NCBI GenBank assembly: GCA_964519955.1 | Contig: CAZFLM010000021.1 | Location: 16,276-80,275 of the forward strand | DNA: 64,000 bases | Direction: 5' to 3' | From: an uncultured Chthonomonadaceae bacterium | Lineage (GTDB): Bacteria; Armatimonadota; Chthonomonadetes; Chthonomonadales; CAJBBX01 | Part shown: one piece after another, positions 9,336-41,449 of the stretch | Layout: every line of letters starts with the position of its first letter | Position numbering within the stretch: the first letter of the stretch is position 1 | Made by a program: the position numbers and the translations under genes | Notes under the pieces: generated by a model | The model's database searches: none | What the model saw: only the letters and a program-made list of their open reading frames with translations | What the model was told of the DNA's origin: nothing

Positions 9336-10796
9336 GTGACACCCCCCCATAGTCGCCCTGACAGCGTCGATCCTCAGGACCTGCGGGCTGCCGCATCGTC
9401 AGGCGACGCGCTGTGGGTGCTCAGGCTGCTCGCGGCCGGTGCAGCGCCAGACGACGACGCCCGCTGCGGCTTCACACCCCTGCGCGACTGCGTGCTTATG
9501 GCGTCGGTGTGGGAGCCGGAGGACGCGCCTGATACGCCGCCCGCTCTGGTGGACGACTGGGCATCGCCGGAGGAGCGCAAGACCGCGCGGCGGGAGTCGA
9601 GGGCACGGTACCGCGCGCAGTGCGATGCCCATCGCCGCCGTGTAGACGCAGGCGCGTTCTGCCTTCCCGACGACACTCGCCACTACGAGACCGCCCGCTT
9701 GCTGATCGATGCCGGAGCGGACGTGAACGCCGTGGACGGCGAAGGCGACCCTGTGCTCGCGATCGCGGCTAGCGGATCGGCTCGCATGGTGGGCCTGCTG
9801 CTCGATCGCGGCGCCTGCATCGACGCACCGGGCCAGGTCGGCTGGAGCCCACTGATGAACGCGGCGCTGGCCTGCAACACACCGGTCGTGCGGCTCCTCC
9901 TCGACCGCGGCGCCGACCCTCACTGGCGAAGTGCTGACGGCGAGCGCCCCATCATGGCTGCGGCCTACGGAGGAAGCCGGCGCGTCGTCTCCATGCTTCT
10001 GGAATGCGGGGTGGACGTGAACGCGGCGGCGGAGACAGGTACTACCGCGCTCCTGGCGGCGCTGATGCAGGGCTATGAGGACATCGCGCAGCAACTGGAG
10101 GCTGTCGGGGCCGTTCGGGGCTACCTGGAGTCCCTCGTCGCTGGCGACACGCAGCGCGCGGATGAGCTTGCCCCGTCCTTGCCTGCGGGCCGGCACTCGA
10201 CGTGGGGCGCGGACGCGATGGAGTGGGCCATCCGCAGCAGTCGGGTCGACGTCGTCCGACGTCTTCTCTCGGCAGGCGCGGACCCGAACTCCGGCCTGCC
10301 ATTCGGCTGGAAGTACCTGACCTCGGCAGTCAATGACGGCGAAGTCGCGATCGTCGAGGCGCTGCTGGACGCGGGAGCCGATCCGAACTTGGACCGGGGC
10401 ACGGCGTCCTACCCCTTGGGTGAAGCCGTCGGGTCTGGGGACGCGACGTTGCTCGCACTGCTGCTCACGCGCGGTGCGGACCCGGAGAGCGTGGACGATG
10501 CCGCGCGCACGCCTCTCATGCAGGCCGCAATGTGGGGCGCCACCGCCGCCGCTGCCGTTCTCCTCGACGCGGGTGCGGCCCTGAACCACTGCACGGATAG
10601 GGGATCGCCGCTCTACGAGGCCGTGATGGCGAGGCAGTACGATATGGTGGGTTGGCTCCTTGCCCACGGCGCTCTACCCCGCATCGGCCTGGCCGGCTGG
10701 CCAATCACCGGGCTGCCCGAGGTGCAGGAGGACGCGCGGATGTTCTCCACCATTCGTGAGGCGATGGCGACGCGCCGTAGCTCCGAGCCTGACTAG
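9336..10796 (+). CDS. Ankyrin-repeat protein (paralog 1)
   Basis: Many G.TPL..AA / LL..GAD.N repeats; no signal peptide. Confidence 0.92.
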   Translation: MTPPHSRPDSVDPQDLRAAASSGDALWVLRLLAAGAAPDDDARCGFTPLRDCVLMASVWEPEDAPDTPPALVDDWASPEERKTARRESRARYRAQCDAHRRRVDAGAFCLPDDTRHYETARLLIDAGADVNAVDGEGDPVLAIAASGSARMVGLLLDRGACIDAPGQVGWSPLMNAALACNTPVVRLLLDRGADPHWRSADGERPIMAAAYGGSRRVVSMLLECGVDVNAAAETGTTALLAALMQGYEDIAQQLEAVGAVRGYLESLVAGDTQRADELAPSLPAGRHSTWGADAMEWAIRSSRVDVVRRLLSAGADPNSGLPFGWKYLTSAVNDGEVAIVEALLDAGADPNLDRGTASYPLGEAVGSGDATLLALLLTRGADPESVDDAARTPLMQAAMWGATAAAAVLLDAGAALNHCTDRGSPLYEAVMARQYDMVGWLLAHGALPRIGLAGWPITGLPEVQEDARMFSTIREAMATRRSSEPD

Positions 10797-10877: not shown

Positions 10878-13460
10878 ATGCCTGAGATCGATCCCCCGAT
10901 GGACGAGCTGCCGGACCTGCCGGGAGGTCTCTTCGGCGAGCCGGCGAGTGACGACGAGCGCCTGGCCGAGGCGGTGATCGAAGGCAAGCTGGACGAGGTC
11001 CGCAGGCTCCTCGACGCGGGCGCTGACCCGAACGCCAACCGCAAGTTCCTCGGGCCGCCTCTCTCGATCTGCGCAAGCGGGCCGGCGCATGCGCCGATTG
11101 ATCGCATGCTGCGCAGGCCCGGCCGCATCCCGGGCTTCCCGCCGCCTGGTAGTTCGCCGGAAGAGGGCCTGAAGGCGATGAGCAAGCTCCTCCAGTCGCA
11201 CACGCCGCAGCAGATGCAGGGGAACCGCCGCAGGGCGCGCGACAAGGCGAGGCGCAGCGCGGACCTCGGGCGCAAGAGGCCGCCGGACGAGACGCGCCAT
11301 CTGGAGGTCGCGAAGCTCCTGCTGGAACGCGGCGCGAACGTGGCCGCACGCGGCGAGATCGAGGGACAGACGGCCCTGCACGATGCGGCCCGGAGCGGGT
11401 GTGCGCGCATGACGGCGCTGCTCCTCGACCATGGCGCCGACATCGAGGCGGAGGACAAGAGCGGCAAGACGCCGCTGATGCTCGCCACCGAGGAGTGCAA
11501 GATCCACGTCGTGCGAGTGCTGCTGGAGCGAGGCGCGGACGCGATCAGACGCGGAACAGACGGCCACGCCCCCATGCACTCGGCCGCATTGGGAGGCAGC
11601 AAGCGCATCCTGGCCATGCTCATCGAGCGCGGCGCCGACGTGAACGCTGCCACGGATGCCGGCACGACACCGCTGCTGATCGCCCAGATGCGGCAGTATC
11701 CCGACATTGTGAAGCTTCTGGAGCGTGCCGGGGCGCGCGTGGGCTATCTGGAGGCGGTGGTGCGTGACGACAGCGCACTGGCCGACGAGTTGGAGCGCGG
11801 GTTGCCCACGGACCGACATCCGAGTTGGGGCTCACCCGTCCTGGAGTGGGGCATCCGCCAGGGCCGCGTGGACATCCTGAAACGTGTGCTCGGCGTCGGC
11901 GTGTCGGCGAACGGGCTGACCTCGAACAAGAACAGCACCCCGCTCATGCTGGCCGCGATGCATGGGTCGCCGGACGTGGTGCGGGCGCTGCTCGAGGCCG
12001 GCGCCGACCCAAACGCGACGAGGGCCCGCGGGTTCATGCCGCTGACGTGGGCGGCCCGACGAGGCGACTCGGACACGGCCCAGCTCCTGCTGCAGCATGG
12101 CGCGGATCCGAACACCCCCGGATGCAACGTGGGTGGCGCCTTGCAGGGAGCCGCGTCGTCCGGCAGCATCGAGATCGTGCGGATGCTGCTCGACGCCGGC
12201 GCCAGTCCGGTTAGGGAGCACGACGGGTTGTCACCGGCCGTGTCGACGCTGATGATGGGCCACCACGAGATTCTGAAGCTCCTCTTCGAGCACGGCGCCG
12301 ACCCGCGCACTGCGTGCCACGGAAAGGTACCCATCGACGTGCTGCCGCGAGCCCTCGGTGATGCGCGCATGAAGGCCATCATCCAGGAAGCAGCGGGCAC
12401 CGACCTGCACGAGGCGGCGGCCGCCGGAGACGTCGAGCGCCTCCGATCCTTGCTCGCGGCCGGCCGCACCCCGGAGGCGCGCGACACGAAGGGACGGACT
12501 GCGCTCATTGCCGCGGTCGAGGCCGAGCAGAGGAGCGCGGCCGAGTTCCTTCTGGACCATGGCGCGGATGTGAATGGCCGGAGCGAGCACGGCCGAACTC
12601 CGCTGTCGGTGGCGGTCCGGGGCAACCAGATCGCGATCGCTAAGCTGCTGCTCGACCGCGGCGCCGACCCGGACCTGCCCGACCAGACATGCCAGACTCC
12701 GCTCGTAACCGCCGCGCTGTCGATGGTCGATGGGCGCCGCGAGTTCGTGGATCTACTGCGTTCACGGGGCGGCGTGGTTGGGATCGTGGAAGCGGCGGCG
12801 CTCGGTGACACCGACGAGGTGCTGCGCATGATCGACGCGGGCACACCCGCCGATACTCGCGTGCCCACGGGGCCGAGCGCCCTCTGCGCCGCCGCAGCCA
12901 CCGGCAACGACGCCCTCGTGGCGGCGCTTCTGGACCGCGGCGCGGACATCAACCTGCAGATCTGGTGGGGCCAGTGTGCGCTGAGTCAGGCGTCCGGACG
13001 CGGGCACCTGTCTACGGTCGCACTGCTGCTCGATCGCGGCGCCAACCCGAACGTCGAGGCGAAGTCCTGCAGCATGACGCCGCTCGGCTCCGCCGTCGTG
13101 ACCGGGCAGGCGGACATTGTGCGGTTGCTTGTGCAGCGCGGCGCTCGGATCGACATGGCGGACACCATGGGCCACACGATCGCGCACGAGGCGGCGATGA
13201 GCAAAGAGGGGGTCGCGATGGTGGGCCTCCTTGCGGAACTGGGGGCCAAGATGAGCGGCCACACTAAGGCCGGACTGACGCCCCTCATGATGGCCGCGAT
13301 GCTCAACCGCGTCGACGTGGTGAGAGCCTTCGTGGAGCACGGAGCCGATCCGAACGTGCGCGACCGCACGGGCAGCACGGCCCTCACCCACGCAGAGCGC
13401 ATGGCCAGAGGCCCTGAGGCGGCGGCTTACCTCAGGAAGGTCACCAAGAAGTCGAAGTAG
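10878..13460 (+). CDS. Ankyrin-repeat protein (paralog 2, 860 aa)
   Basis: GAGGAG RBS 8 nt before the ATG; long array of ANK repeats (GQTALHDAA, GKTPLMLA, GRTPLSVA, GLTPLMMAA). Confidence 0.93.
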   Translation: MPEIDPPMDELPDLPGGLFGEPASDDERLAEAVIEGKLDEVRRLLDAGADPNANRKFLGPPLSICASGPAHAPIDRMLRRPGRIPGFPPPGSSPEEGLKAMSKLLQSHTPQQMQGNRRRARDKARRSADLGRKRPPDETRHLEVAKLLLERGANVAARGEIEGQTALHDAARSGCARMTALLLDHGADIEAEDKSGKTPLMLATEECKIHVVRVLLERGADAIRRGTDGHAPMHSAALGGSKRILAMLIERGADVNAATDAGTTPLLIAQMRQYPDIVKLLERAGARVGYLEAVVRDDSALADELERGLPTDRHPSWGSPVLEWGIRQGRVDILKRVLGVGVSANGLTSNKNSTPLMLAAMHGSPDVVRALLEAGADPNATRARGFMPLTWAARRGDSDTAQLLLQHGADPNTPGCNVGGALQGAASSGSIEIVRMLLDAGASPVREHDGLSPAVSTLMMGHHEILKLLFEHGADPRTACHGKVPIDVLPRALGDARMKAIIQEAAGTDLHEAAAAGDVERLRSLLAAGRTPEARDTKGRTALIAAVEAEQRSAAEFLLDHGADVNGRSEHGRTPLSVAVRGNQIAIAKLLLDRGADPDLPDQTCQTPLVTAALSMVDGRREFVDLLRSRGGVVGIVEAAALGDTDEVLRMIDAGTPADTRVPTGPSALCAAAATGNDALVAALLDRGADINLQIWWGQCALSQASGRGHLSTVALLLDRGANPNVEAKSCSMTPLGSAVVTGQADIVRLLVQRGARIDMADTMGHTIAHEAAMSKEGVAMVGLLAELGAKMSGHTKAGLTPLMMAAMLNRVDVVRAFVEHGADPNVRDRTGSTALTHAERMARGPEAAAYLRKVTKKSK

Positions 13461-24517: not shown

Positions 24518-24589
24518 GGGCGGTTGGCTCAGTGGTAGAGCGCCTCGTTCACACCGAGGAGGTCACTGGTTCAAATCCAGTACTGCCCA
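24518..24589 (+). tRNA. tRNA-Val (anticodon CAC); CCA not encoded
   Basis: Acceptor GGGCGGT/ACTGCCC, D arm GCTC/GAGC, anticodon arm CCTCG-TTCACAC-CGAGG, T arm ACTGG-TTCAAAT-CCAGT. Confidence 0.97.
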
Positions 24590-24603
24590 CACACCCTTCC
24601 TCT

Positions 24604-27459
24604 TCACCCCACGAACGCCGAGCCCGACGCGGTCGCTACCACCCTCCGCTCCAGGAAGATCGAGCCACCCGACGACGTGAGGCCGTTCGAGTCGCGGCGC
24701 GTGACCGTCACCTCCGGCGACTGCGCTCCCGCGGCGATGGCGCGATCCCGGGCACGCTGCCGGGCGATGGCGACCGCCGTCTCCGTCGCGTGCTGCAGCT
24801 CCGAGAACTCCATCCGCTCGTCGATGCCGTGGAGCACGTAGTTCGAGAACAGCCCCGGCTGGATGAGCACCTCGTCGGTCACCGAGACCTCCGTCGCGAT
24901 GGCGCCGATCGCGTTGGCCACGTCGGCGTCCTCCGGCACGATCACCTCCGCATCCAGGTGCTCGCGCACCGGGCCCGCCAGGACGCCGGCTGGAGCGCCG
25001 ATGGCGATGAGGGGCCGATCCAGCGAGAAGCGCACCTTCAGGCCGCGCTCGGCGGGTTCGAACGCGCGGTCCAGCAGGAAGCGCCAGTCGTCGGGCAGAT
25101 CGTGCAGGCGCCGGTCGTCGTGCGAGACCTCGCGGCGCACCACCTCCTCGAACATCCGGCGGGTCACAGCCTTCCGCGCCGCCGACATCACCTCGGCGAC
25201 GGGCCTACCGAACATCTCCGCCCACAGCTCCAGGGCCAGGCGCGACGCCTCGGCATCCCAGCGCTCGAACTCGCCGCTCACGTGCAGCAGGTCGGTGGGA
25301 GTGAGCGCGCATCGCTTCACCATGCCCGCCTGCTCCAGCCTGGCGAGCGGGAGGAACTTGTGGTTGGGCGTGCCGAGCCGTGCCGCGGCTTCGATGGCGG
25401 GGATCGGCCCCTGCGCGACGAGCGCCATCAGCGCGGCCTCGGGAGCGGTGAGGCCCAGGTTGCCCGCGCCGCCGGCGATGAGCACGTCGAGGGCCGATGC
25501 GTCCGTCGCCTTCAGGCAGTGGCGGCGGTCGAAGCGCTCCAGGAACCGCCGGACCGACGGGTGCTCGCTTGCCACGTAGGCCAGCGGCAGGTTGCGCGTC
25601 GGGCCGATCACGATGTCGCGCTCGCGGGTGAAGTCGATGCGGCTGTCGCCGCCCAGGCCCACGGTGCTCATCTCGACCACGTCCACCGACATGACCCACT
25701 GCCCGACCCGCGCGCCCTCCGGCGCCACCGCGACGCGGCCGTTCTGCAGGATCGCGCAGTCCGTCGTGGTGCCGCCGACATCCATCACGAGGGCGTCGTC
25801 GAGGCCGGTGAGGATGCGCGCACCGCTGACACTGGCCGCGGGGCCGGAGAGGATCGTCTCGATCGGGCGGGCGCGCGCGATGCTCTCGTCGACCGGGGTG
25901 CCGTCGCCCTTGACCACCGTCAGCTTCCCGGGCACCGAGAAATCGCCGAGCGCGCGGTGGACGGAGTCGAGCAGGTGCTCGATAACCGGCAGGAGGCGAG
26001 CGTTCGTGACCGCGGTCTGGGCGCACTGGATGCCGTTCAGGCGGCGGCTGACCTCATGCGCGCAGATCACCGGCACCTTCGCGCGCTCGCGGATGATCTC
26101 GCGGACGCGGTTGGCCTGGGCGGGATTGCGGATGGTGCAGTAGCCTGCCACCACGAGCGCCGCGCAGTGCTCCTGCTCGATGAGGCGGTCGACCGCCTTG
26201 CGGCAGGCGTCCTCGTCCAGCTCCTCCAGCACCTCGCCCATGATGTCGACGCTGGCGGGCAGGTACTCGTACGGCGCGTGGCCGATGTCGGTGGCGAACC
26301 ACTCCCAGGGCGCCAGCACGATCAGTCCAACGCGATGCCCGCGCCCCTCGACGATCGAGTTGGTCGCCAGCGTGGTTGAGAGCGAGGTGATCTCGACGCG
26401 CTGCAGCAGGTCGGCCGGAAGCTGGCCCAGGGCGCCGCGGATGCCCTCAACCAGGTCGTGGTAGGTGGTGAGCGACTTCGCCTTGGCGAGCAGCCTGGCC
26501 GCGCGGAGGTCCCAGAGCACCGCGTCGGTGTACGTGCCGCCCGCGTCGATGCCGAGGCCGATGGCGGTGGCCCCAGCCTGGGCCGGGTCGTTCGCGCACC
26601 ACGAGGTCGGGTGCTTGCCGGGCTCGCGGGCGGGGGATGTCGTCGCGTCGGGCTCCGGGGCGGCGTCGGACGAGTCGGGCTCGGGCGCGGCGGCCCGCTC
26701 GTCGACCGTGGCGGCGGCGAGGACGCGGTCGTCGCCCGTCGAGGCGGACCGGTGGCCGGGCGGAAGCACGAACACGCGGCGCTCGTCCCAGTTGCCGTCG
26801 AGGATGGCGCGCATCAGCTCCAGGTCGCCGCGGATGGCCTCGTAGTTCCACCCGTTGACCTCGGCCATCTGGCGGGTGAGCGCGGCGTACTCCTCCTCGC
26901 CAGGCAGGCCGAGATCGATGTAGGCCGCGCGGGTGTAGTGCTGGCGCCATCGGTCGAGGAAGGCCAGCACGTGCTTGGCGTTATCCGCGCCGTACTGCTC
27001 CGCCATGTCGCCGAAGGCCGGGTGGTGCTCGTAGCCGTCGCGGAAGTAGTTTCGGTAGAGGTCGCCCGCCTCGCGGTTCTTGGGGTGCGTCTTCTTGTCG
27101 ACCCAGCCCAGCGTGCTGTAGAAGGTGCCCGGCGTGCGGTGGAACTGGCGCAGGTACGCCTCCGGCGAGCCGAGGAAGAGGGTGATGCAGTCGTGGGCGC
27201 GGGGGATGACGATCGGCACGTCGCGCGCGATGAGCCCTGCCGCGCCCTGGCCGCACAGGCCGTAGAAGAGCACGACGGCGTCGAAGCCGCCCTCCCGCGC
27301 GGCGGCGTCGATGGCGCCCTGTGCCTGGAGCCGCAGGTCGTGAGGGCGCGCGTGCAGGCCGGCGTCCAGGATGAGCGTATCGATCTGACTGGCACACTGG
27401 GGAGCGAGGAATTCGATGTACGGCTCGAACACGCCACAGGCGACGACCTTCAACCTCAT
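24604..27459 (-). CDS. DUF1638 domain fused to hydantoinase/oxoprolinase-A (ASKHA ATPase) domain, 951 aa
   Basis: N-terminus: DAGLH..P, YGLCG, PRAHDCITLFLGS. C-terminus: GIDAGGTYTDAV, LSTTLATN, SGPAAS, DVGGTTTD, GLGGDS, TPTD, VANAIGA. Confidence 0.85.
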   Translation of the reverse strand: MRLKVVACGVFEPYIEFLAPQCASQIDTLILDAGLHARPHDLRLQAQGAIDAAAREGGFDAVVLFYGLCGQGAAGLIARDVPIVIPRAHDCITLFLGSPEAYLRQFHRTPGTFYSTLGWVDKKTHPKNREAGDLYRNYFRDGYEHHPAFGDMAEQYGADNAKHVLAFLDRWRQHYTRAAYIDLGLPGEEEYAALTRQMAEVNGWNYEAIRGDLELMRAILDGNWDERRVFVLPPGHRSASTGDDRVLAAATVDERAAAPEPDSSDAAPEPDATTSPAREPGKHPTSWCANDPAQAGATAIGLGIDAGGTYTDAVLWDLRAARLLAKAKSLTTYHDLVEGIRGALGQLPADLLQRVEITSLSTTLATNSIVEGRGHRVGLIVLAPWEWFATDIGHAPYEYLPASVDIMGEVLEELDEDACRKAVDRLIEQEHCAALVVAGYCTIRNPAQANRVREIIRERAKVPVICAHEVSRRLNGIQCAQTAVTNARLLPVIEHLLDSVHRALGDFSVPGKLTVVKGDGTPVDESIARARPIETILSGPAASVSGARILTGLDDALVMDVGGTTTDCAILQNGRVAVAPEGARVGQWVMSVDVVEMSTVGLGGDSRIDFTRERDIVIGPTRNLPLAYVASEHPSVRRFLERFDRRHCLKATDASALDVLIAGGAGNLGLTAPEAALMALVAQGPIPAIEAAARLGTPNHKFLPLARLEQAGMVKRCALTPTDLLHVSGEFERWDAEASRLALELWAEMFGRPVAEVMSAARKAVTRRMFEEVVRREVSHDDRRLHDLPDDWRFLLDRAFEPAERGLKVRFSLDRPLIAIGAPAGVLAGPVREHLDAEVIVPEDADVANAIGAIATEVSVTDEVLIQPGLFSNYVLHGIDERMEFSELQHATETAVAIARQRARDRAIAAGAQSPEVTVTRRDSNGLTSSGGSIFLERRVVATASGSAFVG

Positions 27460-27791
27460 GCCGAGGAATCCTCCGGAGGGGCTACGACGAGGACTCCCGG
27501 CCCCGCCTGGTTCCATTATCACACACGGCGGCGCGGAGTCGGACGGGCGGCGTTCCGGCCTGGTCACCCCGAACCGGTGGTGCCGGCGAATGAATTCGCG
27601 CCTGAGAACGGCACGAAGTCCGCCGTCGCGGGCTCGAATGACCACGGCAACGTAGGTGCAGTGCCATGCACATGGCGCCGGGCCGGGCGCGCTCAATTCG
27701 GTGGGAGACATGCATGGCCCGTGCACGTCCGACAGGGAAGCGCGGCGTGGTGGTCGAACCAGTGCGCATCACTTCTCGGAAGGTGGCGCCC

Positions 27792-28487
27792 GTGACCGCT
27801 CAGCCTGGCTCCGATCCGCGACTGCCGGACTCCTCGTTCCTGCGAGACTGCGCGTTCGTGTGCGTCGACATCCAGCCGGCCGGCGGCGAGCCGGCGGGCG
27901 ACATCCCCGACGAGTGGAAGCGGGCCGGCATCACGCTGGAGGACGCGCGCGCCGCGGGCAGGTACGCCCTCGCGGTGGCGCTCCCGAACGCGCGGCGGGT
28001 TGCGGATGCCTGCCGCGGCCTCGGCCTGCCGATGATCTTCATCCACTGGGGCTTCCGCCTCAGGGACGGCATGGACCTCGCGCCCGCGATCCGCCAGTCG
28101 TTCCTGGAGCAGTTCGGCGAGGACGCCGCCAGGTGGCCGCACCACATCGAGGCGCCCGACTCCCGCCCGGCAGACGAGCTGGGCGTGCGCGAGGGCGAGT
28201 ACGTCATCGCCAAGTCGGACCAGGACGCCTTCACCTCGTCCAACATCGGATTCGTGCTGCAGAACCTGGGCGTGCGCAACCTGGTGTTCGTGGGCGGCCA
28301 CACCGGCGCCTGCCTGGGCAAGACCGCGGCGTCGGCGAAGCGCCTTGGCTACCGCATCCTGTGCGTCGAGGACGCAACCAACGACGCGGCCGAGCCGCGG
28401 CGCCTCCCGAACCTGCGCGCGACGGGCTACGACTTCGTCGTCACGACCGACGAGTTCGTGGCGCTGGCGCAGGCGGCCGGCGGGTAG
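27792..28487 (+). CDS. Isochorismatase-family cysteine hydrolase
   Basis: Asp-Lys-Cys triad in VDIQ, AKSDQDAF and GGHTGACL; then VEDAT. Confidence 0.88.
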   Translation: MTAQPGSDPRLPDSSFLRDCAFVCVDIQPAGGEPAGDIPDEWKRAGITLEDARAAGRYALAVALPNARRVADACRGLGLPMIFIHWGFRLRDGMDLAPAIRQSFLEQFGEDAARWPHHIEAPDSRPADELGVREGEYVIAKSDQDAFTSSNIGFVLQNLGVRNLVFVGGHTGACLGKTAASAKRLGYRILCVEDATNDAAEPRRLPNLRATGYDFVVTTDEFVALAQAAGG

Positions 28488-28552: not shown

Positions 28553-31144
28553 ATGGCGGAGACGCCGGTCGTCTTCATCAGCTACAGCCACCAAGACCCG
28601 CAGTGGCGCGACTGCGTCACGGACCTGCTCGCGTCGATGCGGCGCTCCGCCGTGTGGAACGACCGCGCCCTCGAAGCCGGGGAAGAGTGGCGGCAGCAGA
28701 TCATGGACGCCATCGGAGTCGCCCGCGCCGCCGTGCTGCTGGTCTCCAAGCCGTTCCTCGCGTCCGCGTTCATCCGCGATGTCGAGTTGCCCGCGCTGCT
28801 CGCCCGCCACATCCCCATCCTCGCGGTGTTCGTCGGCCCGACGACCGCCGCGACGCGCGGATCGCTGGGCGCCCTTCAGGGCGTCAACGACCCGGCGCGC
28901 CCGCTCTGCGAGGCCGATGCCGAGGAAGGGGTGCGCGTTGCCGCGCGCCTACAGGAGGCCATCCTCAAGGCCCTGGGGATGCCCGATGCGCCCACCATCG
29001 GCAACCTGCCCTACGGCACCATCGGCACGCTGTTCAAGGGGCGCGAGGGCGTGTTGGGGGAGATGGAGCGGCGCTTGCAGCCCGACGCGCGCGTGCTGAT
29101 CCGGCCCACCACGCTCTATGGGGCGGGCGGCATCGGCAAGACGCGGCTCGCCGTCGAGTACGCGCTGCGGCACGCAGGCGAGTTCACCGCGCTGCTCTTC
29201 GTGGGCGCGGACAGCCCGGCGAATCTGCGCCGCAATCTGGCCGACCTCTGCGGGCCGGGCGTGCTGGACCTGCCGGAGCAGGAGACGCCCGAGGAGGCCG
29301 CGCGCGTCGAGGCGGTCCTGCGGTGGCTGGCTGGGCACCCCGGGTGGCTCCTCATCCTGGACAACGCGGACACGCCGGACGCCGCCGCCGAGGTGGAGCA
29401 GCTCTTCCCGCGGCTGACGGGCGGGCGGACCATCGTGACGTCGCGGCTGGCGAACTGGAGCGCGGGCACGGAGCCGCTGGAGCTGGACGTGCTGGACCCG
29501 GACGCCGCCGCCGCGTTCCTGCTGGAGCGCACCGCCCGCCGCCGCCGCACGCCCACCGACGACGCGGACGCGCGGGCGCTGGCCCATGACCTCGACGGCC
29601 TCGCGCTGGCCCTGGAGCAAGCAGGGGCGTACATCGACACGAAGCGGCTGGCTCTGCCTGCGTACCGGGAGCTGTGGGCGCGGCACGACCGGAAGGTGCG
29701 CGAGTGGCGCGACCCGCGCCTGACGAACTACCCGCGCAGCGTCGCCACGACGTGGCTCACCACGATGGCCCAGCTCAGCCGCGGCGCCCTGTCCCTCCTG
29801 CGCCTGCTGAGTTGGCTCGCGCCGGACCCGATCCCGCTCTCACTCATCGCCGAGCAGGAGCAGGACGCCCTCGCCGAGTTGGCGGGCTACTCCCTCGTGA
29901 AGCTCGAAGGCGACACCCTCCGCGTCCACCGCCTTGTGCAGGAGGTCACGCGTGACCGGCCGTCGGCCCGGCAGCAAGCCAGGTCGCTGCGCGCGGCGCT
30001 GGAGCGGGTGAACGGGGCCTTCGTGGGCAAGCCGGACGACGTCCGCAACTGGCCGGCGCTTGAGCCCTTGCAGCCTCACGGCGCCGCGGTTGTCCGGGCG
30101 GCCGACGCTCAGCGGATGGGAGAGCCGACGGCGCGGCTGATGAACCAACTATCTCTGCTCCTTCAGGCCAAGGCGCTGTACTCCGAGGCGGAGCCGCTGA
30201 TGCGGCGGGCGCTGGCGATCCGTGAGCAGAGCGGCGGGCCTAACCACCCTAGTGTGGCGGTATACCTGAACAACCTCGCAATGCTCCTTCGGGGCACGTA
30301 CCGCCTGGCAGAGGCGGAGCCGCTGATGCGCCGGGCGCTGGCGGTCAACGAGGGGAGGTGCGGACCGGACCACCCTAACGTCGCCATCCGCCTGAGCAAC
30401 CTGGCGATCCTGCTCTACGCCACGAACCGCCTGGCGGAGGCGGAGCCACTGATGCGCCGGGCGCTGGCCATAGACGAGGCGAGCTACGGGCCGGAGCACC
30501 CCAACGTCGGCACAGGCCTCAGCAACCTCGCGATGCTCCTTCGGGGCACGAACCGGCTGGCGGAGGCGGAGCCGCTGATGCGTCGGGCGCTGAAGATCGA
30601 CGAGGCGAGCTACGGGCCTGACCACCCGATGGTAGCCATCCGCCTGAACAACCTGGCGGACCTCCTCTACGCCACGAACCGCCTGGCGGGGGCGGAGCCG
30701 CTGATGCGCCGGGCGCTGGCCATCGACGAGACGAGTTACGGGCGGGAGCACCCCGGCGTGGCAGTAGACCTGAGCAACCTGGCGCAGCTCCTCACGGCCA
30801 CGAGCCGGCTGGCGGAGGCAGAGCCGCTGATGCGCCGGGCGCTGGCCATCGACGAGGCGAGCCACGGGCCGGAGCACCCCGACATAGCAGTACGCCTCAA
30901 CAACCTCGCTCGCCTCCTCCAGGGCACGGACCGCCTGGCGGAGGCGGAGCCGCTGATGCGAAGGCACGTCGTGATCTTCGCGGTGTTCCGCGCGCGGAAT
31001 GGCCACGAGCACCCACACTGGTCGGGGGCGTGCCAGAATTACCTCCTGCTGCTCCTCGACATGGGCCTGAGCGAGGCGGAGGCGGCGCGCAAGGTGGCGG
31101 AGGCGGAGGCGGAGGGGTCGGCGCTCGGGGGCGGATCGGGCTGA
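28553..31144 (+). CDS. TIR - NB-ARC/STAND NTPase - TPR protein (bacterial NLR-like), 863 aa
   Basis: TIR: VFISYSHQD, WND..L.AGEEW, LVSK.FL.S.FI.DVELP. Walker A GAGGIGKT; Walker B LLILDN; GLALALEQAGAYI; MH(R)LVQ-like VHRLVQ; TPR_10/12-type repeats. Confidence 0.92.
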   Translation: MAETPVVFISYSHQDPQWRDCVTDLLASMRRSAVWNDRALEAGEEWRQQIMDAIGVARAAVLLVSKPFLASAFIRDVELPALLARHIPILAVFVGPTTAATRGSLGALQGVNDPARPLCEADAEEGVRVAARLQEAILKALGMPDAPTIGNLPYGTIGTLFKGREGVLGEMERRLQPDARVLIRPTTLYGAGGIGKTRLAVEYALRHAGEFTALLFVGADSPANLRRNLADLCGPGVLDLPEQETPEEAARVEAVLRWLAGHPGWLLILDNADTPDAAAEVEQLFPRLTGGRTIVTSRLANWSAGTEPLELDVLDPDAAAAFLLERTARRRRTPTDDADARALAHDLDGLALALEQAGAYIDTKRLALPAYRELWARHDRKVREWRDPRLTNYPRSVATTWLTTMAQLSRGALSLLRLLSWLAPDPIPLSLIAEQEQDALAELAGYSLVKLEGDTLRVHRLVQEVTRDRPSARQQARSLRAALERVNGAFVGKPDDVRNWPALEPLQPHGAAVVRAADAQRMGEPTARLMNQLSLLLQAKALYSEAEPLMRRALAIREQSGGPNHPSVAVYLNNLAMLLRGTYRLAEAEPLMRRALAVNEGRCGPDHPNVAIRLSNLAILLYATNRLAEAEPLMRRALAIDEASYGPEHPNVGTGLSNLAMLLRGTNRLAEAEPLMRRALKIDEASYGPDHPMVAIRLNNLADLLYATNRLAGAEPLMRRALAIDETSYGREHPGVAVDLSNLAQLLTATSRLAEAEPLMRRALAIDEASHGPEHPDIAVRLNNLARLLQGTDRLAEAEPLMRRHVVIFAVFRARNGHEHPHWSGACQNYLLLLLDMGLSEAEAARKVAEAEAEGSALGGGSG
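30185..30960 (+). repeat. Coding tandem repeat, 126-bp period (42-aa TPR)
   Basis: gaggcggagccgctgatg-like anchors at 30185, 30311, 30437, 30563, 30689, 30815 and 30941. Confidence 0.95.
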
Positions 31145-35760: not shown

Positions 35761-36339
35761 TCAAGCCAGCCACCGCACCACCTTGGCCGCCGCCCCGCCG
35801 CATGCCCCGGTCGCCGCGACCAGGAACAGGATGCCGGTCGTCAGGTCGGGCTCTCCTGCGCCGGTCGCGCCCATGCCGGCAGCGGGGTAGCCCAGATGGA
35901 CTGCCAGTGCGAGCAGCCCGCCGAAGGCCCCCGACGCCAGTCCGGCGGCGATGCACGGCTCGAACTCGAAGTCCGGCAGCGAGAAGCCGAAGAGGAAGCC
36001 ACCCTCACCGCCCTTCGGGTAGCCGGATGCGGCGCCGACGCACGCCATCAGGAGGACGACAGCGCTCTCGTTGCCGCGGGCGCGGGCGGCAAGGTGGGCT
36101 GCTGCCACCCAGCCATGCAGCAGGCCGTACACCGCGACGAACGCTGCGCCGGCGACAACGCCGACGAGCATCGCCGGAACCAGCCACCTGAGCGGGCCGA
36201 GGTCGCGTGGCCGCTCGACACGCGCCGGTACGGCTCCGGCCACAACGCGCCGGCACCGCGGGCACCGCTCCTCCTCGTCGAGCAACTGGATGTCGCAGGC
36301 GGGGCATCTGCGGTGCTTCGCCTGGATGACTTGCGGCAT
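35761..36339 (-). CDS. Zinc-ribbon membrane protein
   Basis: GGAGG RBS; CPAC..CPRC followed by four hydrophobic segments. Confidence 0.7.
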   Translation of the reverse strand: MPQVIQAKHRRCPACDIQLLDEEERCPRCRRVVAGAVPARVERPRDLGPLRWLVPAMLVGVVAGAAFVAVYGLLHGWVAAAHLAARARGNESAVVLLMACVGAASGYPKGGEGGFLFGFSLPDFEFEPCIAAGLASGAFGGLLALAVHLGYPAAGMGATGAGEPDLTTGILFLVAATGACGGAAAKVVRWLA

Positions 36340-36381
36340 CTTGGCCTCCGAGCCGTGATCACATACTGCGGCGCTGCCCTG

Positions 36382-37128
36382 TCACCGCGCGATCAGCGCG
36401 AACACGCCCCAGCCCAGGTACTCACGCGTGTAGGCGGCGTACCGCACGGGCTCCGACGATAGCTGGGCTCGGACCTCCGTCCCGAACCCGTCGTCCGGGT
36501 TGTCCTCGAGCCATCGGCGCATCGTGAGCCACTTGGCCGCCTCGTACCTGTCCCAACTGTCCTGATCTGCCAGGACCATCTCCACGACGTCGTAGCCGAG
36601 CCGGCCGAATGACGCCAGAAGCTCCGGCAGCAGGACGAAGTCGGCGATGGAGCCGGCATGGCACTCTCTGGCGGCATCCTCTGTCGGCGGTATCTGCCGC
36701 CAGTAGGGCTCGCCGACGAGGATGATCCCTCCGGGGCGGAGGCTCTGGGCCAGAAGCTCGATGGTGCCGCGGACCCCTCCGCCGATCCAGGTGGCGCCGA
36801 TGCAGGCTGCCACATCGACCTTCTGCTCGGAAACGTAGCCGGCCGCATCGCCGTGGATGAAGCCGACCCGATCGGCGACGCCGAGTTCCTCCGCGCGTGC
36901 TTTGGCCTGCTCCGTGAACAGCGCGCTCAAGTCGACGCCGGCGCCGGTGACCCCGTAATCGCGGGCCCAGGTGCACAACATCTCCCCGGAGCCGCTGCCG
37001 AGGTCGAGCACTCTGGTACCCGTTTCCAGACGCAGCGCCGCGCCGAGAGTGGCCAGCTTCTCGGGTGTGAACGGGTTGTGGATGCGGTGAGCGCTCTCGG
37101 CTACGTTGAAGATCCGTGGTATGTCCAT
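36382..37128 (-). CDS. SAM-dependent methyltransferase, YjhP-like (248 aa)
   Basis: MDIPRIFNVAESAHRIHNPFTPEKLATLG, VLDLGSGSGE, GVDLS, GEPYW, YLGWGVF; resembles E. coli YjhP as recalled. Confidence 0.88.
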   Translation of the reverse strand: MDIPRIFNVAESAHRIHNPFTPEKLATLGAALRLETGTRVLDLGSGSGEMLCTWARDYGVTGAGVDLSALFTEQAKARAEELGVADRVGFIHGDAAGYVSEQKVDVAACIGATWIGGGVRGTIELLAQSLRPGGIILVGEPYWRQIPPTEDAARECHAGSIADFVLLPELLASFGRLGYDVVEMVLADQDSWDRYEAAKWLTMRRWLEDNPDDGFGTEVRAQLSSEPVRYAAYTREYLGWGVFALIAR

Positions 37129-37403
37129 TGCAGAAGACCTCCTGAAAGTGGCGAGCAGATCCCGTGTGGCAGAACCGGCGAACCCTCGCACGGCGCGTCC
37201 TCCACTGGAGGGGTCCAAGGAGCGCTGGTCGTCCATAGCGACCGCACAAGCCGATCTTGTGGCGTCGCCTTAGCCTGTCCTATTCATGAGTCGCACCGGA
37301 CGGGCACGGAGGCCCATCCCACCACTGCACTCGTGCATGATCCAGGTTAGCGGCCCGCGGGCCTTCTACAGGCGGGATGTCACCGTGATGCGGGCGTGAG
37401 GGG

Positions 37404-38711
37404 CTACTCACCGTCACCTTTCGTCGCCGCCCCCTTACCCAGGACCTTTGAGACGATGGGAAACAGGGCTTGGGCCTGCCGCTGCATCCCGATGTCGGTG
37501 TAATGGACACCGTCCACTGTCCCTTCGCCGTCATCGCCAATGAAGTTGTTCGGCGGGACGACCACCAGCCCCTGCACGCCGTCCTTCAGCAGCTTCTGGA
37601 CGGCGAACTCCTGATCGACGGTTATGTCGGTCGGATGAGCGTTGGGGCGAAACATCGATTGGCCCATGAAGAAGATCGGCGCGGCGGGGTGCACTTTGCG
37701 AATGGCCTGCACCAGCTTCGTCACGTGATCCAGGAACATATCCTTGCCCGTTCCCATGTTCCACGTGCAGTCGATAACATATGCCGCCGCGTCGATCTCG
37801 GCGAGCACCTCGCCCACGGGCGGGGCCATGTCGCCCGAGCCGGAGAAACCCAGGTTGACAACGGGTCGATCGAGCATGCGGCCCAGAATCGACGTCCAGA
37901 TCATCCCAGGCCGCGATGCGCATCCGCCTTGAGTGATCGACGTTCCATAGATGACGACAGGCTTGCGCAAACCTTCGGGACGCGCTGCTGCCTTCTCGAC
38001 CTGACTGCCGGCAGGGACGCCGATCTCCAGTGACTTCGTGCCGTTGTAGGCGGGCAGGTACAGCAGGCATTCGCGTTTGGCCTTGGCGCCGTCGGGGAAC
38101 TCAATCGTGGATTGGTTGGCGTCTTGTTTGTATGGCCTGCAGTTGCCGACGAATCGCCAGCCGCCATTTGCGGCGCGGGCGTAGAGGTCCAAGCCGCTGC
38201 ATCCCGTAGCCGGCATGTGCGGCATGGCGAGAGATGCGTTTGTGAGCGACCATCGCACGCTCACGGCCGCAGCGTCCGTGGTGAACCGAATGCCAATGCC
38301 GGCGCTTTCCTTGCTCTGGTTCCACGCCGTGGAGTTGACCTTCGCGTTGGCGGAAGCCGGAAGCCGGTCGAAGGGATCTGCGGTCTGGGCCCACCCCTTG
38401 CCCTCGATGTCGAACGACGCGGCGTCGCGCCACTGCACCTCCGGTGCCGCAGCGTTGCCCGAATAGGCTGCGAGCACGGCAGACAGGGAAAGCACAAGCC
38501 CGCGGGACAGACCGGCAGGGGTTTGGTTGGTGGGCGCGCCGCCGCCGGTCAGGGTGGCTATCTGCTCGGCCTTCTCGCCGACCGAGTGCAGCGCCTCCGG
38601 GCGATCCGTGACAACAGCCAGCTTGCATGCGCTGGCCGGCTGCCCCTGCTCCGCCATAGCGGGTTGCGCGAACAGAAGCAGGGCGATGAGCATCGCGAGT
38701 TGCAGTCTCAT
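37404..38711 (-). CDS. SGNH/GDSL hydrolase (SsfX3-like N-domain plus GDSL-3), possibly chimeric N-terminus
   Basis: YGTSITQG, NLGFSGSG, DGVHYTD; N-domain FDRLP...SAGI..RF.TD, LYLP.YN. Confidence 0.85.
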   Translation of the reverse strand: MRLQLAMLIALLLFAQPAMAEQGQPASACKLAVVTDRPEALHSVGEKAEQIATLTGGGAPTNQTPAGLSRGLVLSLSAVLAAYSGNAAAPEVQWRDAASFDIEGKGWAQTADPFDRLPASANAKVNSTAWNQSKESAGIGIRFTTDAAAVSVRWSLTNASLAMPHMPATGCSGLDLYARAANGGWRFVGNCRPYKQDANQSTIEFPDGAKAKRECLLYLPAYNGTKSLEIGVPAGSQVEKAAARPEGLRKPVVIYGTSITQGGCASRPGMIWTSILGRMLDRPVVNLGFSGSGDMAPPVGEVLAEIDAAAYVIDCTWNMGTGKDMFLDHVTKLVQAIRKVHPAAPIFFMGQSMFRPNAHPTDITVDQEFAVQKLLKDGVQGLVVVPPNNFIGDDGEGTVDGVHYTDIGMQRQAQALFPIVSKVLGKGAATKGDGE

Positions 38712-39199
38712 CCAAGTGCTCCCATGCTAAAGATATCATCCCCATCGTGTGCCCCTGCGGGCATTGTCATGCCGCACGGCCATCTCCGCCAGCGCGCGGC
38801 ATGCACCCGACGCCATGTTCCACGCGACGAACCGGATACCTACGGTCTCCACCACCGCCCGTCGCCCGCTGTTACCGTTGACTGCTTGGCAGGGCCAGGA
38901 AAACGGCTGTTATCCACTACAGACGCATTGGAGTAACACTCCGGAGCGACGTGTTCCAGCGACGTGTGGGCCCATACGCCCGGTTGAGTCCTGCTGCAAC
39001 TGACGCAGGCCAACGGCAAGGTTCCGCACCGATACCGATTTCGCCTCGGGTGCACGACGGGTCGGTCCCAGGATTCGGGTTGTCGTCCCAACGAACAAGT
39101 GGAGCGGAACCCACTTGCGCCCATGTCTGCCCAGCGAAGGTCACAACCAGGATTGCCAGCAATCCCGGTGTGTTCACTGTTCCTGCCCTCGGCGGAGAG

Positions 39200-41128
39200 T
39201 CACGGTTCGATGTACATCGTGTAGAGATCGGCGCTGCGCATCGCGACCCGGAGGCGGAAGTTGCCCTCGGGCATCGCGAACACCGGGGCCTTGATGCTGT
39301 CGCCGCGGACATCGGCGGTTCTGAGCGCGCGGCCCTTCGCGTCCAGCAGCTCGATGCGGAGCAGGCCGTCTTTGGCGACACAGGCGTTGACGGAGAGCGC
39401 GCCGCCTCCCTTGATGGGGCGAGTGACGAAGACTCCCTTGCGGCTGCCGGCACGGACGCCGAACCAGCCGTCGGCACGGTAGGACATCACCCCCACGGCG
39501 ACGTGGCCCTTCCGGGCGTGCTCGGCCAAGCCTTCCCAGCCGCCCATCGACTTGAAGTACGGAAGGCCCTCGGCGAAGCGGCGCTTGGCGAAGATGGACC
39601 TGAAGTCGTCGGCCGTGATCTCGCTCTGCGCGTTGTGGCGGAACAGGGGCTCGGCGTAGTAGTGCGGCAGCGAGGTGCCCGTGACGAGCTGGTAGTAGCG
39701 GTTGCCGACCTGGACAATTCCCTGTTCGGGGGACAACTCGCCGAAGTACCAGTCGAAGGGATTAGCCGTCTTGGCAAACGGATGGGGGTCGGTGAAGTCG
39801 TAGAAATTGATGCCATCGCGGCTGTATTTGAGGTCGAGAAAGACCTGCTGGTTTTCGCTGTCGTAGGCGTTGATGAAAGCGAGATGGAGCCCGGCGTCAG
39901 GCATGAACCGGATGTCGGCGCCGTACTGCTGCGAGAACGGGTTGTCGAGAGGACCGCACGAAGAGATGGAATGGCAGTAATGCCAGTCGACGCCGTCAAC
40001 GGTGCTGTATATGGTGAGTATGCGGCTGCTGTTGGGCAGCAGATCGTAGGGCACGTTGTAGGGAGCGAAACGGCGGACGGTCTGGCCGCGGGCCAGGAAG
40101 AGCGTTTTGCCATCCTCGGAGAGCCACGAGTTGCCGAAATTGTCGTTGGTGGAGAAACCGTCGTCGAAGTCGTCACTGGTGTAGAGGGGGACGTCGCGGA
40201 AGAGAGGCTTGTCGCGGAGGAAGACGATCTCGCCCGACGATGTGCGGGCAACGACCCAGTAGGTACGGTAGCCGGCCTTTACGCAGCCGAAGTCGTAGGG
40301 GTCCACATTCTGGATGATACCGATGTCGCGCAAGGTGTAGGTGCCGTTACGGGCGCGGTCGTACATCTCGTACTTACGCCTCCCAGGCGCCGAACCGAGG
40401 ATATTGAAACTCTTGAAGAAATCCTTCTGAGGTTCGGTCTCGGGCGCCGTGGCGACGGGCACATAGGGGCCCTCGGGGGTCGGGCTCTGCACCGTGAAGC
40501 GACCGGGGTCGTTGGAATACAGATAACCGCGGCGGTAGGTGTTTTCGAGTCCCTGAATCACATAGGTGCCGTCGACGGCGCGGCGAAGGGAGGAGCCGTC
40601 GATGCGCACCACGCCGGGACGGGACGAGTGGTAGGTCTCGGTGAGCTTGGGCTTGGAATAGCGGATCTCAAGGTTGCGGAACGACTCGAAGAGCCAGTCG
40701 TCGGGCGTGAAGAAGATCTTGCGGAAGCGGATGGGGCCGTCGGGCCGCGGCATCGCGGGGATGCGCTCGATGCGGAGCATCCGTTTCATCGAGGTCTTCC
40801 CAACCGTGACGGTGGCCATGTATCGTCCCGCGGGAAGGGAGCCGATGTTCGTCAGGACACACGCGTTGCTGCCGGGAGTGAGCCGGAAGCGCCCGTTCCA
40901 CACCTGCTTCCCCTCGGGAGAGACGACGGAGACCGAAGCGGCGCGTACGTCGGCCATCGCCTGCGGCACGACCACCGTCAGCTCGGCCTGCTTGGGGTTG
41001 CGGTAGACGGGCATTGTTAACTCAGCCTGCACTTCGGCGGCGGCAGGGGTATGGCCACCGGTCTGTCCGAGGGAAGCACAAGCAGCCGCCACGAGGCCGA
41101 GGCAGAGGAACTGAACCAGCTTCTTCAT
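39200..41128 (-). CDS. Secreted hypothetical protein with a propeller/beta-sandwich C-terminus related to 22990-24480
   Basis: Signal peptide; YSTVDGVDW, YSRDGINF, YRADGWFGV..VTRP..LSVNA..LRIELLD; visibly more AT-rich codons than its neighbours. Confidence 0.75.
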   Translation of the reverse strand: MKKLVQFLCLGLVAAACASLGQTGGHTPAAAEVQAELTMPVYRNPKQAELTVVVPQAMADVRAASVSVVSPEGKQVWNGRFRLTPGSNACVLTNIGSLPAGRYMATVTVGKTSMKRMLRIERIPAMPRPDGPIRFRKIFFTPDDWLFESFRNLEIRYSKPKLTETYHSSRPGVVRIDGSSLRRAVDGTYVIQGLENTYRRGYLYSNDPGRFTVQSPTPEGPYVPVATAPETEPQKDFFKSFNILGSAPGRRKYEMYDRARNGTYTLRDIGIIQNVDPYDFGCVKAGYRTYWVVARTSSGEIVFLRDKPLFRDVPLYTSDDFDDGFSTNDNFGNSWLSEDGKTLFLARGQTVRRFAPYNVPYDLLPNSSRILTIYSTVDGVDWHYCHSISSCGPLDNPFSQQYGADIRFMPDAGLHLAFINAYDSENQQVFLDLKYSRDGINFYDFTDPHPFAKTANPFDWYFGELSPEQGIVQVGNRYYQLVTGTSLPHYYAEPLFRHNAQSEITADDFRSIFAKRRFAEGLPYFKSMGGWEGLAEHARKGHVAVGVMSYRADGWFGVRAGSRKGVFVTRPIKGGGALSVNACVAKDGLLRIELLDAKGRALRTADVRGDSIKAPVFAMPEGNFRLRVAMRSADLYTMYIEP

Positions 41129-41280
41129 AGGACTACGCTTCTTTCATGACGGAGACGCGAGGGACTGAGACCGGAGGTGAGCCGAAGTCTGAGGCAGTTC
41201 CTACTCGTCGCCACCCAAGATCGTACCTCGGGTCCACTTCCGGTGGTCACGCGGCCTCGGCTGTCGCGTCTACGTCAGGC

Positions 41281-41426
41281 CAGCCACCTGAGCGGGCCGA
41301 GGTCGCGCGGCCGCTCGACACGCGCCGGCACCGCGGGCAGCGCTCCTCCTCGTCGAGCAACTGGATGTCGCAGGCGGAGCACCTGCGGTGCTTTGCCTGG
41401 ATGACTTGCGGCATCTTGGACTCCGA
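41281..41426 (-). pseudogene. Truncated, frameshifted duplicate of the 5' end of the zinc-ribbon membrane gene
   Basis: Near-identical to 36181-36351 apart from a 25-bp deletion between acgcgccgg direct repeats; ATG at 41414; similarity stops at 41281. Confidence 0.85.
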
Positions 41427-41449
41427 ACGGTGAGGGCACACTCGCGGCG

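Follow-up and report, generated by a model that had tools for sequence, protein, structure and literature searches.

Proteins that join a TIR domain, a STAND-type nucleotide-binding switch and tetratricopeptide repeats (TPRs) have been described in bacteria, fungi and plants and are presumed to act as suicide sensors against phages; here we compare with them one such gene from an uncultured Chthonomonadaceae bacterium of the phylum Armatimonadota. The gene lies at positions 28553-31144 of a 64,000-nucleotide stretch of contig CAZFLM010000021.1, which we call the window. It is one intact gene in which a TIR domain that probably cleaves NAD+ is joined to an ATPase switch of the NLR type and to a sensor made of repeats. 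We propose that its product works by itself as an NLR-like receptor, with a STAND module of the NB-ARC/AP-ATPase type and a TIR domain that would act as an NAD+ hydrolase and provide the output of an anti-phage abortive infection response; we regard this reading as probable, though by no means certain.

The described systems closest to this protein each share part of its design. FxsT (NCBIfam NF040586; Kaur, Burroughs, Iyer & Aravind 2020, eLife, PMC7159879) has the same three-part architecture with a common chassis of nucleotide-binding oligomerization domain (NOD) and TPRs, and both there and here the TIR domain is predicted to be an NAD+-processing effector of biological conflict. FxsT differs in its context: the FxSxx precursor, the radical-SAM/SPASM protein, the HEXXH/zincin peptidase and the vWA-MoxR pair that characterize its systems are found neither in the window nor at the homologue loci examined, and the host here belongs to Armatimonadota. 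Judging from sequence and gene context, we have filed the protein as an FxsT-like homologue and not as a member of an FxSxx system. The Avs (AVAST) proteins (Gao et al. 2022; Lee et al. 2026, PMC13581612), like ours, place an N-terminal effector, a STAND module and a TPR-like sensor on one polypeptide; in both, effectors can be exchanged, with TIR and DUF4062/NIR NADases among them, and for both groups ligand-induced oligomerization leading to abortive infection would be expected. In contrast to Avs, however, our protein carries an NTPase of the NB-ARC/AP-ATPase type, with a far lower fold match to Avs5, and whereas Avs sensors are large and irregular, ours is a short and regular array of TPRs of the kinesin-light-chain (KLC) type.

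Plant TNPs (TIR-NBARC-TPR proteins, formerly XTNX; Johanndrees et al. 2022, PMC9806590) have the order TIR - NB-ARC - TPR seen here, and together with the TNLs RPP1 and ROQ1 they share with our protein the P-loop, TTR/TSR, GLPL-like and MHD-like motifs. Bacterial and plant TNPs have been found alike in the NB domain and not in the TIR or TPR regions (PMC9806590). Our protein differs from plant TNPs and TNLs in being bacterial and in having neither leucine-rich repeats nor an EDS1-type downstream pathway. The NB-ARC/TPR NLRs that fungi and bacteria encode (Dyrka et al. 2014, 2020) resemble it in their TPR_10/12 sensors with high unit identity and variable copy number, as well as in the “all-in-one” design of effector, NOD and repeats. 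Those studies center on two-gene pairs with amyloid motifs (BASS) and Bell domains in filamentous bacteria, while the effector studied here is fused and neither an amyloid motif nor a Bell partner is present. Finally, Thoeris ThsB, the TIR-APAZ protein of SPARTA and TIR-SAVED have a conserved glutamate of the catalytic type, as our TIR domain does, but our protein has no ThsA, Argonaute, SAVED or CD-NTase partner, and its fused STAND switch would do the activating.

The architecture is thus one that has already been described, by Kaur et al. 2020 (PMC7159879), in the Dyrka 2020 preprint, for plant TNPs (PMC9806590) and as the NCBIfam FxsT model NF040586, whose cut-off our protein marginally passes. 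In this respect, an initial annotation of the gene, made from the DNA letters alone, had overrated its novelty. What is new here is limited to a divergent singleton in an under-studied phylum and to a chassis that exchanges TIR, NIR and SEFIR heads.

Domain architecture of the protein

The features on which the argument rests are the following; residue conservation in the NOD motifs refers to an alignment of 52 homologues.

28553..31144, + strand: whole gene, TIR - NB-ARC (AP-ATPase STAND) - TPR, 863 aa, intact from ATG to stop
28553..28987, + strand: TIR domain, aa 1-145, five-strand flavodoxin-like fold (Pfam TIR_2, AlphaFold2, Foldseek)
28784..28786, + strand: GAG codon of Glu78, putatively catalytic, within FIRDVELP where helix alpha-C starts (alignment)
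29000..30112, + strand: NOD module, aa 150-520, NB-ARC-type P-loop NTPase followed by a helical domain and a winged helix (DUF7779)
29033..29047, + strand: STAND N-terminal motif of the hhGRExE type, FKGRE, aa 161-165; G163 and R164 invariant
29120..29143, + strand: Walker A/P-loop GAGGIGKT, aa 190-197; G190, G192, G193, G195 and K196 invariant
29348..29371, + strand: Walker B LLILDNAD, aa 266-273; D270 and D273 invariant
29438..29446, + strand: sensor-1/RNBS-B-like TSR, aa 296-298, counterpart of the plant “TTR”; T296 and R298 invariant
29591..29626, + strand: GLPL-equivalent LDGLALALEQAG, aa 347-358; E355 invariant, neighboring residues at least 90% conserved
29924..29941, + strand: MHD-equivalent VHRLVQ in the winged helix, aa 458-463; H459 invariant, R460, V462 and Q463 at least 90% conserved
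30113..31057, + strand: TPR sensor, made of a degenerate lead-in unit, six 42-aa KLC-type repeats and a C-terminal cap
30185..30960, + strand: 126-bp tandem DNA repeat encoding the TPR units, 6.2 copies, 78% matches (Tandem Repeats Finder; also recovered by find_repeats)

The initial annotation had placed a TIR - NB-ARC - TPR protein at 28553-31144, and the open reading frame (ORF) lies exactly there, with every motif that was quoted or named found at its position, among them Walker A (GAGGIGKT, 190-197), Walker B (LLILDNAD, 266-273) and the HRLVQ winged-helix motif within VHRLVQ (458-463). GGAGG precedes the ATG at 28553 by a 10-nt spacer, the N-terminus MAETPVVFISY... aligns with the starts of homologues, and the database protein P0001 has the same 863 aa. 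A longer ORF in the same frame, from 27656, is an artefact of high GC content; it overlaps, in another frame, the isochorismatase-family gene at 27666-28487.

The Pfam model TIR_2 covers aa 7-97 with 40.5 bits (E 4.7e-10; cut-off 28), and the TIR domain contains the motifs VVFISYSH (aa 6-13) and FIRDVELP (aa 73-80). To judge its conservation, we used an alignment of 26 TIR domains, namely our own, those of three STAND-fused homologues and those of 22 small TIR proteins. Glu78 is invariant in all 26 members of this subtype and sits inside the strongly conserved block LLVS-x-F-x3-FI-x-DVELP, while D37, G43 and W46 in the region of the BB loop are invariant or nearly so. When the profile of this TIR subfamily was compared with the Protein Data Bank (PDB), PdTIR, AbTIR and AtTIR were matched at about 1e-7, and Glu78 fell on the glutamate of “...PQKEL” in PdTIR, of “...W-TNYEL” in AbTIR and of “...WCLD-EL” in AtTIR, with a one-residue insertion in our subfamily. 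The AbTIR residue is one that we take to be the catalytic E208, four residues after W204. The claim of the initial annotation that the catalytic glutamate is intact is borne out by this invariance and alignment.

The AlphaFold2 model of aa 1-150 (predicted local distance difference test score, pLDDT, 84) shows a complete TIR fold from beta-A to alpha-E, with Glu78 within the helix formed by residues 72-84. Foldseek ranked the SARM1 TIR domain first for this model (TM 0.66), followed by TIR-1, Cat1, RUN1 and the SPARTA TIRs, all with a probability of 1.00; of these, SARM1, TIR-1, Cat1 and SPARTA have TIR domains that are active enzymes. PADLOC matches were confined to the TIR region and stayed at the level of the domain (ThsB, TIR-SAVED, “Effector” and bSEFIR). 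The closest relatives of the domain are small TIR proteins of about 245 aa and not STAND fusions; the gene context of two such TIR-only relatives (P0121 and P0134) offered no clue to function. Taken as sequence and model evidence, these results suggest that the TIR domain looks catalytically competent, and NADase activity is predicted for it.

The NOD module carries all six STAND/NB-ARC motifs (hhGRExE, Walker A, Walker B, sensor-1, GLPL-like and MHD-like) in order, the core of the GLPL-equivalent being LALALEQAG at aa 350-358. The first of these is reportedly a motif that Leipe and colleagues defined in 2004. Pfam recognized DUF7779, the winged-helix region of this STAND family, at aa 405-470 (32.6 bits, cut-off 27) and AAA_22 at aa 186-365 (28.3 bits, cut-off 27); NB-ARC itself (PF00931) scored 20.7 bits over aa 186-365, just under its cut-off of 23.5, and a precomputed PF00931 match is carried by many homologues. 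Of the domains named in the initial annotation, TIR_2 and TPR_10/12 were thus upheld by profile search with matches far beyond chance, while the Pfam NB-ARC model stopped just below its cut-off.

Structure and profile comparisons nevertheless point in one direction. The AlphaFold2 model of aa 1-525 has a pLDDT of 89, exceeding 90 throughout the NOD, and its best Foldseek match was RPP1 (2e-13, across both TIR and NB-ARC), followed by CED-4 (2e-11) and NRC2 (9e-11); the NACHT domain of NLRP3 (2e-6) and Avs5 (1e-4) were orders of magnitude worse. The model superposes on resting-state NRC2 with a root-mean-square deviation of 4.1 Å over 356 columns, and the NRC1 NB-ARC gave a TMt of 0.68. When the family profile was searched against the PDB, the NOD region matched plant NB-ARC NLRs only (9h2l, the wheat G10-type protein, Roq1, NRC1/3 and Sr35), and the Roq1 match extended across TIR and NB-ARC. 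Because the profile matches only plant NB-ARC NLRs and because RPP1, CED-4 and NRC2 are the top folds, we consider the NB-ARC assignment secured; the sub-cut-off Pfam score is best read as divergence, not as another fold or clade.

The sensor was correctly recognized as a TPR array from the outset: TPR_NPHP3 (2e-80), TPR_12 (7e-67) and TPR_10 (1e-61) all match it, and the nearest solved structures in a PDB sequence search are the TPR domains of kinesin light chains 1/2 (4e-35). The six 42-aa units span aa 541-792 with the consensus NRLAEAEPLMRRALAIDEASYGPEHPNVAVRLNNLAMLLRGT, and a conserved C-terminal cap that follows them contains GHEHPH. The units are 60-76% identical to each other at the protein level, with the variation focused at repeat positions 1, 27, 31, 37, 40 and 41, and homologues have from 4 to 14 of them. 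High conservation between units with few variable positions has been reported for NB-ARC/TPR NLRs in fungi as well as bacteria (Dyrka et al. 2020 preprint), and in their focused variation and varying copy number the units of our protein resemble these sensors.

Family, effector exchange and partner genes

Searched at full length, the protein has over 1,100 relatives in the database, and the closest reaches only 57% identity over 78% of its length. A search with the NOD alone, among 1.84 billion representatives with clusters formed at 50% identity, returned 2,503 clusters at E ≤ 1e-30 and 11,883 at E ≤ 1e-10, with a best identity of 58%. The members come from Planctomycetota, Acidobacteriota, Cyanobacteria, Verrucomicrobiota, several Proteobacteria, Bacteroidota, Chloroflexota, Actinomycetota and Methanothrix. 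Armatimonadota contributed a single match, at 32% identity, to the best 80 loci in GTDB species-representative genomes. On these sequence searches the NOD-TPR family is very large and patchy across phyla, the opposite of a vertical housekeeping distribution.

The N-termini vary in kind. Among the top 120 homologues, 112 were long enough to be classified, and they fall into 12 unrelated types on one NOD that is 41-54% identical through the family. DUF4062 accounts for 89 of the 112; the others are three TIR_2 subtypes, SEFIR, an Mrr_cat restriction-endonuclease domain, EAD1 (Effector-associated domain 1) and several unassigned types. The TIR subtype of our protein is present in just 4 of the 120 top relatives, and a TIR profile detected a TIR domain in only 10 of 264 sampled family members. 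DUF4062 has been identified as an NAD+-depleting Avs effector and renamed NIR (bioRxiv 10.64898/2026.09.04.749371), and the swapping of effector heads is a hallmark by which STAND clades are called defense-associated (Lee et al. 2026, PMC13581612). The chassis thus swaps NADase heads taken to be functionally equivalent, and occasionally a nuclease, as conflict systems do. Taking this head exchange together with the scatter over phyla, the evidence at the level of the family favors an immune or conflict role.

The gene stands alone in its surroundings. Pfam scans of the 31 genes of the window and a motif scan of its ORFs found no FxSxx peptide, radical-SAM protein (CxxxCxxC), HEXXH peptidase, vWA, MoxR or ThsA-type effector, and PADLOC found no partner among ten neighbors, its sole matches being a generic methyltransferase and an ankyrin protein. 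At each of the four homologue loci that we inspected closely the gene likewise has no partner, and their settings are unrelated to one another; genes for an AccI-type restriction enzyme, for ParD and for an N6-methyltransferase lie near one of them. We further surveyed 149 immediate neighbors at 43 more loci (two genes on each side), and no neighbor family recurred there beyond occasional TPR_10/12 paralogues and ABC transporters; over all 47 homologous loci there is no conserved neighbor. The single-gene status is solid, and the initial description of a stand-alone gene with no known defense partners nearby stands for the whole 64 kb. As a separate observation from this survey, a second gene of the TPR_10/TPR_12/NPHP3 type lies directly beside the STAND gene in 4-5 of the 43 loci, as a tandem paralogue or a split gene.

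Proposed mechanism and alternative readings

Based on these findings, we propose the following scheme. At rest, the receptor would be a closed, ADP-bound monomer in which His459, the MHD-like histidine, and the TPR arm lock the NOD, and the TIR domains are kept apart; the AlphaFold2 model of aa 1-525 resembles NRC2 in its resting state. A foreign peptide or protein, most likely one that belongs to a phage, would bind to the concave side of the six near-identical TPR units of the KLC type, where the hypervariable positions lie. Release of the lock would then allow ADP to be exchanged for ATP at the P-loop and the protein to oligomerize, probably as a tetramer like those of RPP1, ROQ1 and Avs. 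Oligomerization would bring the TIR domains into contact, so that composite active sites could form around Glu78 and hydrolyze NAD+. The outcome would be NAD+ depletion and growth arrest or death of the infected cell, that is, abortive infection, rather than second-messenger signaling. We favor depletion over a messenger because no receiver effector is linked to the gene and because direct-acting heads can take the place of the TIR domain on this chassis. What the receptor binds, how it oligomerizes, its NADase activity and its anti-phage role are inferred by analogy, the steps from ligand binding through abortive infection being modeled by homology on RPP1/ROQ1, Avs, TIR-SAVED, SPARTA and ZmTNP-IIa. 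In the last of these, a plant TNP, cell death needs both the catalytic glutamate and the P-loop (PMC9806590). The likeness to NLR and Avs receptors drawn in the initial annotation is upheld; the immune role is what we infer.

Should this mechanism prove true, the protein would be a compact, experimentally tractable bacterial TIR-NLR of 863 aa with a switch closer to those of plant NLRs and CED-4 than to those of the Avs and bNACHT proteins studied so far. With it one could ask how a TIR NADase holoenzyme arises from NB-ARC oligomerization and what lets a short, regular TPR array select its ligand. One NOD-TPR chassis that carries TIR, NIR (DUF4062) or SEFIR heads would also support the view of these heads as equivalent NAD+-depleting modules. 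TIR-NLR-like receptors would be extended to Armatimonadota, and no new kind of system would be added. A broader proposal is that the NB-ARC NOD with a short, regular array of KLC/NPHP3-type TPRs defines a very large Avs-like family of about 2,500 clusters, with interchangeable NAD+-degrading NIR, TIR and SEFIR heads and with a few hypervariable repeat positions that recognize a conserved phage peptide or protein. This we put forward tentatively, as a possibility that we ourselves rather doubt. If it holds, plant TNPs and the NPHP3-type STAND/TPR chassis would have in this family their prokaryotic counterpart and perhaps their origin, and this gene would give the first defense system characterized from Armatimonadota.

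Several points weigh against an immune receptor that cleaves NAD+. A conserved glutamate is necessary for NADase activity and yet insufficient for it. Our literature search found no experimental study of this protein or of other bacterial members of the NB-ARC/KLC-TPR family. Only 1 of the 43 surveyed loci is clearly defense-adjacent (SIR2-HerA), and with the restriction-modification and ParD genes at 1 of the 4 loci inspected in detail, these are raw counts without a control set; the association with defense islands looks weak, and this is what argues most against assigning an immune role with confidence. PADLOC 2.0 gave no full-length match to an Avs, NLR or TIR-NLR model. The gene has a native composition, hence recent acquisition cannot be demonstrated, and nothing mobile adjoins it. 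Its neighbors, an isochorismatase-family hydrolase 65 bp away on one side and a GxGYxYP glycosidase 81 bp away on the other, run in the same direction. In addition, the NB-ARC-TPR chassis also occurs in non-immune roles, as in AfsR and NPHP3 (PMC13581612).

Some of these points would suit a regulatory STAND protein outside immunity, a housekeeping or stress/developmental switch comparable to AfsR, MalT or NPHP3. The hydrolase and glycan genes on either side might then be functionally linked to it, and the TIR domain would serve as a scaffold or as a metabolic, NAD-linked regulator. The co-directional arrangement with short gaps and no predicted terminator within a glycan-use cluster, the native composition, the seemingly weak defense-island association across the family and a TPR array most similar to the NPHP3/KLC type are all compatible with such a role, and STAND clades are known to shift between defense and non-defense roles (PMC13581612). 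However, isochorismatase and glycan genes never recur beside homologues, the protein has no DNA-binding domain, and toxic-effector domains occupy the N-terminal position across the family. Related Armatimonadota have no orthologue, the best match anywhere is the one at 57% overall and 58% for the NOD, and synteny is not kept even in the relative whose neighboring gene is 85% identical. We regard a non-immune role as unlikely.

A second alternative keeps the immune role and changes the output, in that the TIR domain would make a cyclic ADP-ribose isomer or an ADP-ribose-derived messenger for an effector encoded elsewhere, sparing the bulk of NAD+. TIR domains with the same catalytic glutamate do make signals in Thoeris and in plants, and the nearest relatives of our domain are the small TIR proteins mentioned above. 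Against this, no ThsA-type effector (SLOG/SIR2/Macro), caspase-like protein or known receiver was found in the window or beside homologues, and the same chassis exchanges TIR with the direct-acting NIR NADase, SEFIR and an Mrr nuclease. It has also been a working rule of the field, in a survey of Thoeris, that TIR domains in Avs or stand-alone proteins are handled as NAD+ depleters (bioRxiv 10.64898/2025.12.03.692087). A signaling output is, in our estimate, improbable.

It could further be argued that the protein is an orphan FxsT, that is, the TIR-AP-ATPase-TPR component of an FxSxx-COOH peptide system, with a peptide modified by a radical-SAM enzyme and with or without a vWA-MoxR ternary system, whose other genes lie elsewhere in the genome; the TPRs would then sense the processed peptide and not a phage protein. 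The equivalog model NF040586 (FxSxx-COOH system TPR protein) scores 307.1 bits, KLC-type TPRs bind peptides, and an AP-ATPase with an N-terminal TIR domain and C-terminal TPRs was described downstream of actinobacterial FxSxx-type systems (Kaur et al. 2020, PMC7159879). But the score is marginal (cut-off 300), and the model spans the NOD and TPR regions only. FxSxx systems are described as actinobacterial, while the host is from Armatimonadota, and no radical-SAM protein, HEXXH peptidase, FxSxx-terminated ORF, vWA or MoxR accompanies the gene in the 64 kb. The same context is missing beside the homologues examined and at L075, the one actinobacterial TIR-bearing locus checked. With the context test failed in the window and at L075, we have rejected membership of an FxSxx system, and an orphan FxsT seems to us quite improbable.

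That the gene is a decaying or silent relic, as its standing as a singleton without close relatives and the lack of a sigma-70-like promoter upstream (in a scan that is weak for this phylum) might hint, is very improbable, given a 2.6-kb ORF unbroken in a 70% GC genome, catalytic and switch motifs that are all intact, a C-terminal cap that is present and third-position GC and codon usage typical of expressed host genes.

The locus and its neighbors

The window encodes GH43, GH130, WbsX-like, GxGYxYP, GH32, GH20, melibiase, ThuA and glycogen phosphorylase proteins. The gene had been said at first to be inserted in a glycan-metabolism region. The region is indeed of that kind, with GH43, GH130, GxGYxYP, GH32, GH20 and melibiase genes flanking the TIR-STAND-TPR gene, but the word “inserted” finds no support in its native codon usage and third-position GC content (GC3), in flanking repeats or in an att-like copy of tRNA-Val, the latter two being absent. 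GC3 of the gene is 0.92, compared with 0.91-0.97 in its neighbors, and its codon-usage distance ranks 15th among the 31 genes of the window. The gene is compositionally native; its GC, GC3 and codon usage give no sign of recent horizontal transfer. Pfam scans of the 31 genes found no integrase or transposase in the window. Integration at tRNA-Val (24518-24590, 4 kb away) was considered and rejected, with no second copy of the 3' end of the tRNA and no repeats flanking the gene. The gene has no paralogue within the window, and neither a sigma-70-like promoter upstream nor a terminator-like site was detected in a scan that has low power for this phylum.

On one side, the gene neighbors a DUF1638-hydantoinase/oxoprolinase fusion of 951 aa at 24604-27459 on the - strand. 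The first genome scan with this neighbor gave a sole match, archaeal and at 33%; orthologues named Armatimonadota or Chthonomonadales were found, many at 61-63% in metagenome-assembled genomes and one at 85% in a Logan assembly, and they identify the host as a member of Armatimonadota. The flanks of three orthologues that we checked for synteny (L017-L019) have nothing in common with the window, and gene order around the fusion differs from relative to relative; therefore, insertion and loss of the TIR-STAND-TPR gene cannot be told apart.

Immediately upstream of the TIR gene, at a distance of 65 bp and on the same strand, is an isochorismatase-family cysteine hydrolase (27666-28487, +). We considered whether it might be a nicotinamidase serving as a partner in NAD salvage and rejected the idea; its matches are weak NCBIfam matches of the BiuH/RutB type, and the pairing is absent beside homologues.

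Elsewhere in the window, two direct copies of a segment of about 190 nt, with 91-95% identity between them, lie 5.1 kb apart at 36180-36367 and 41280-41442 and bracket the stretch 36382-41128. This stretch has the lowest GC content of the window (0.63 vs. about 0.70) and holds most of the genes of most deviant codon usage; it encodes an S-adenosylmethionine-dependent methyltransferase, a GxDLY/GDSL esterase and a 642-aa secreted protein. It has the look of an insert that was acquired recently and whose target segment was duplicated.

Free-living bacteria seldom have large ankyrin proteins. The window encodes one of 860 aa at 10878-13460 (+), which matches Ank_2 at E 5e-103 and the PADLOC candidate PDC-M72A at 1e-101, the latter match probably being driven by the repeats; a second Ank-like ORF lies upstream of it at 9336-10796 (+). 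Near the start of the window, a 153-aa ORF at 645-1106 (+) bears the Fic/Doc-type motif HPYENGNKR, which suggests a Doc-like toxin.

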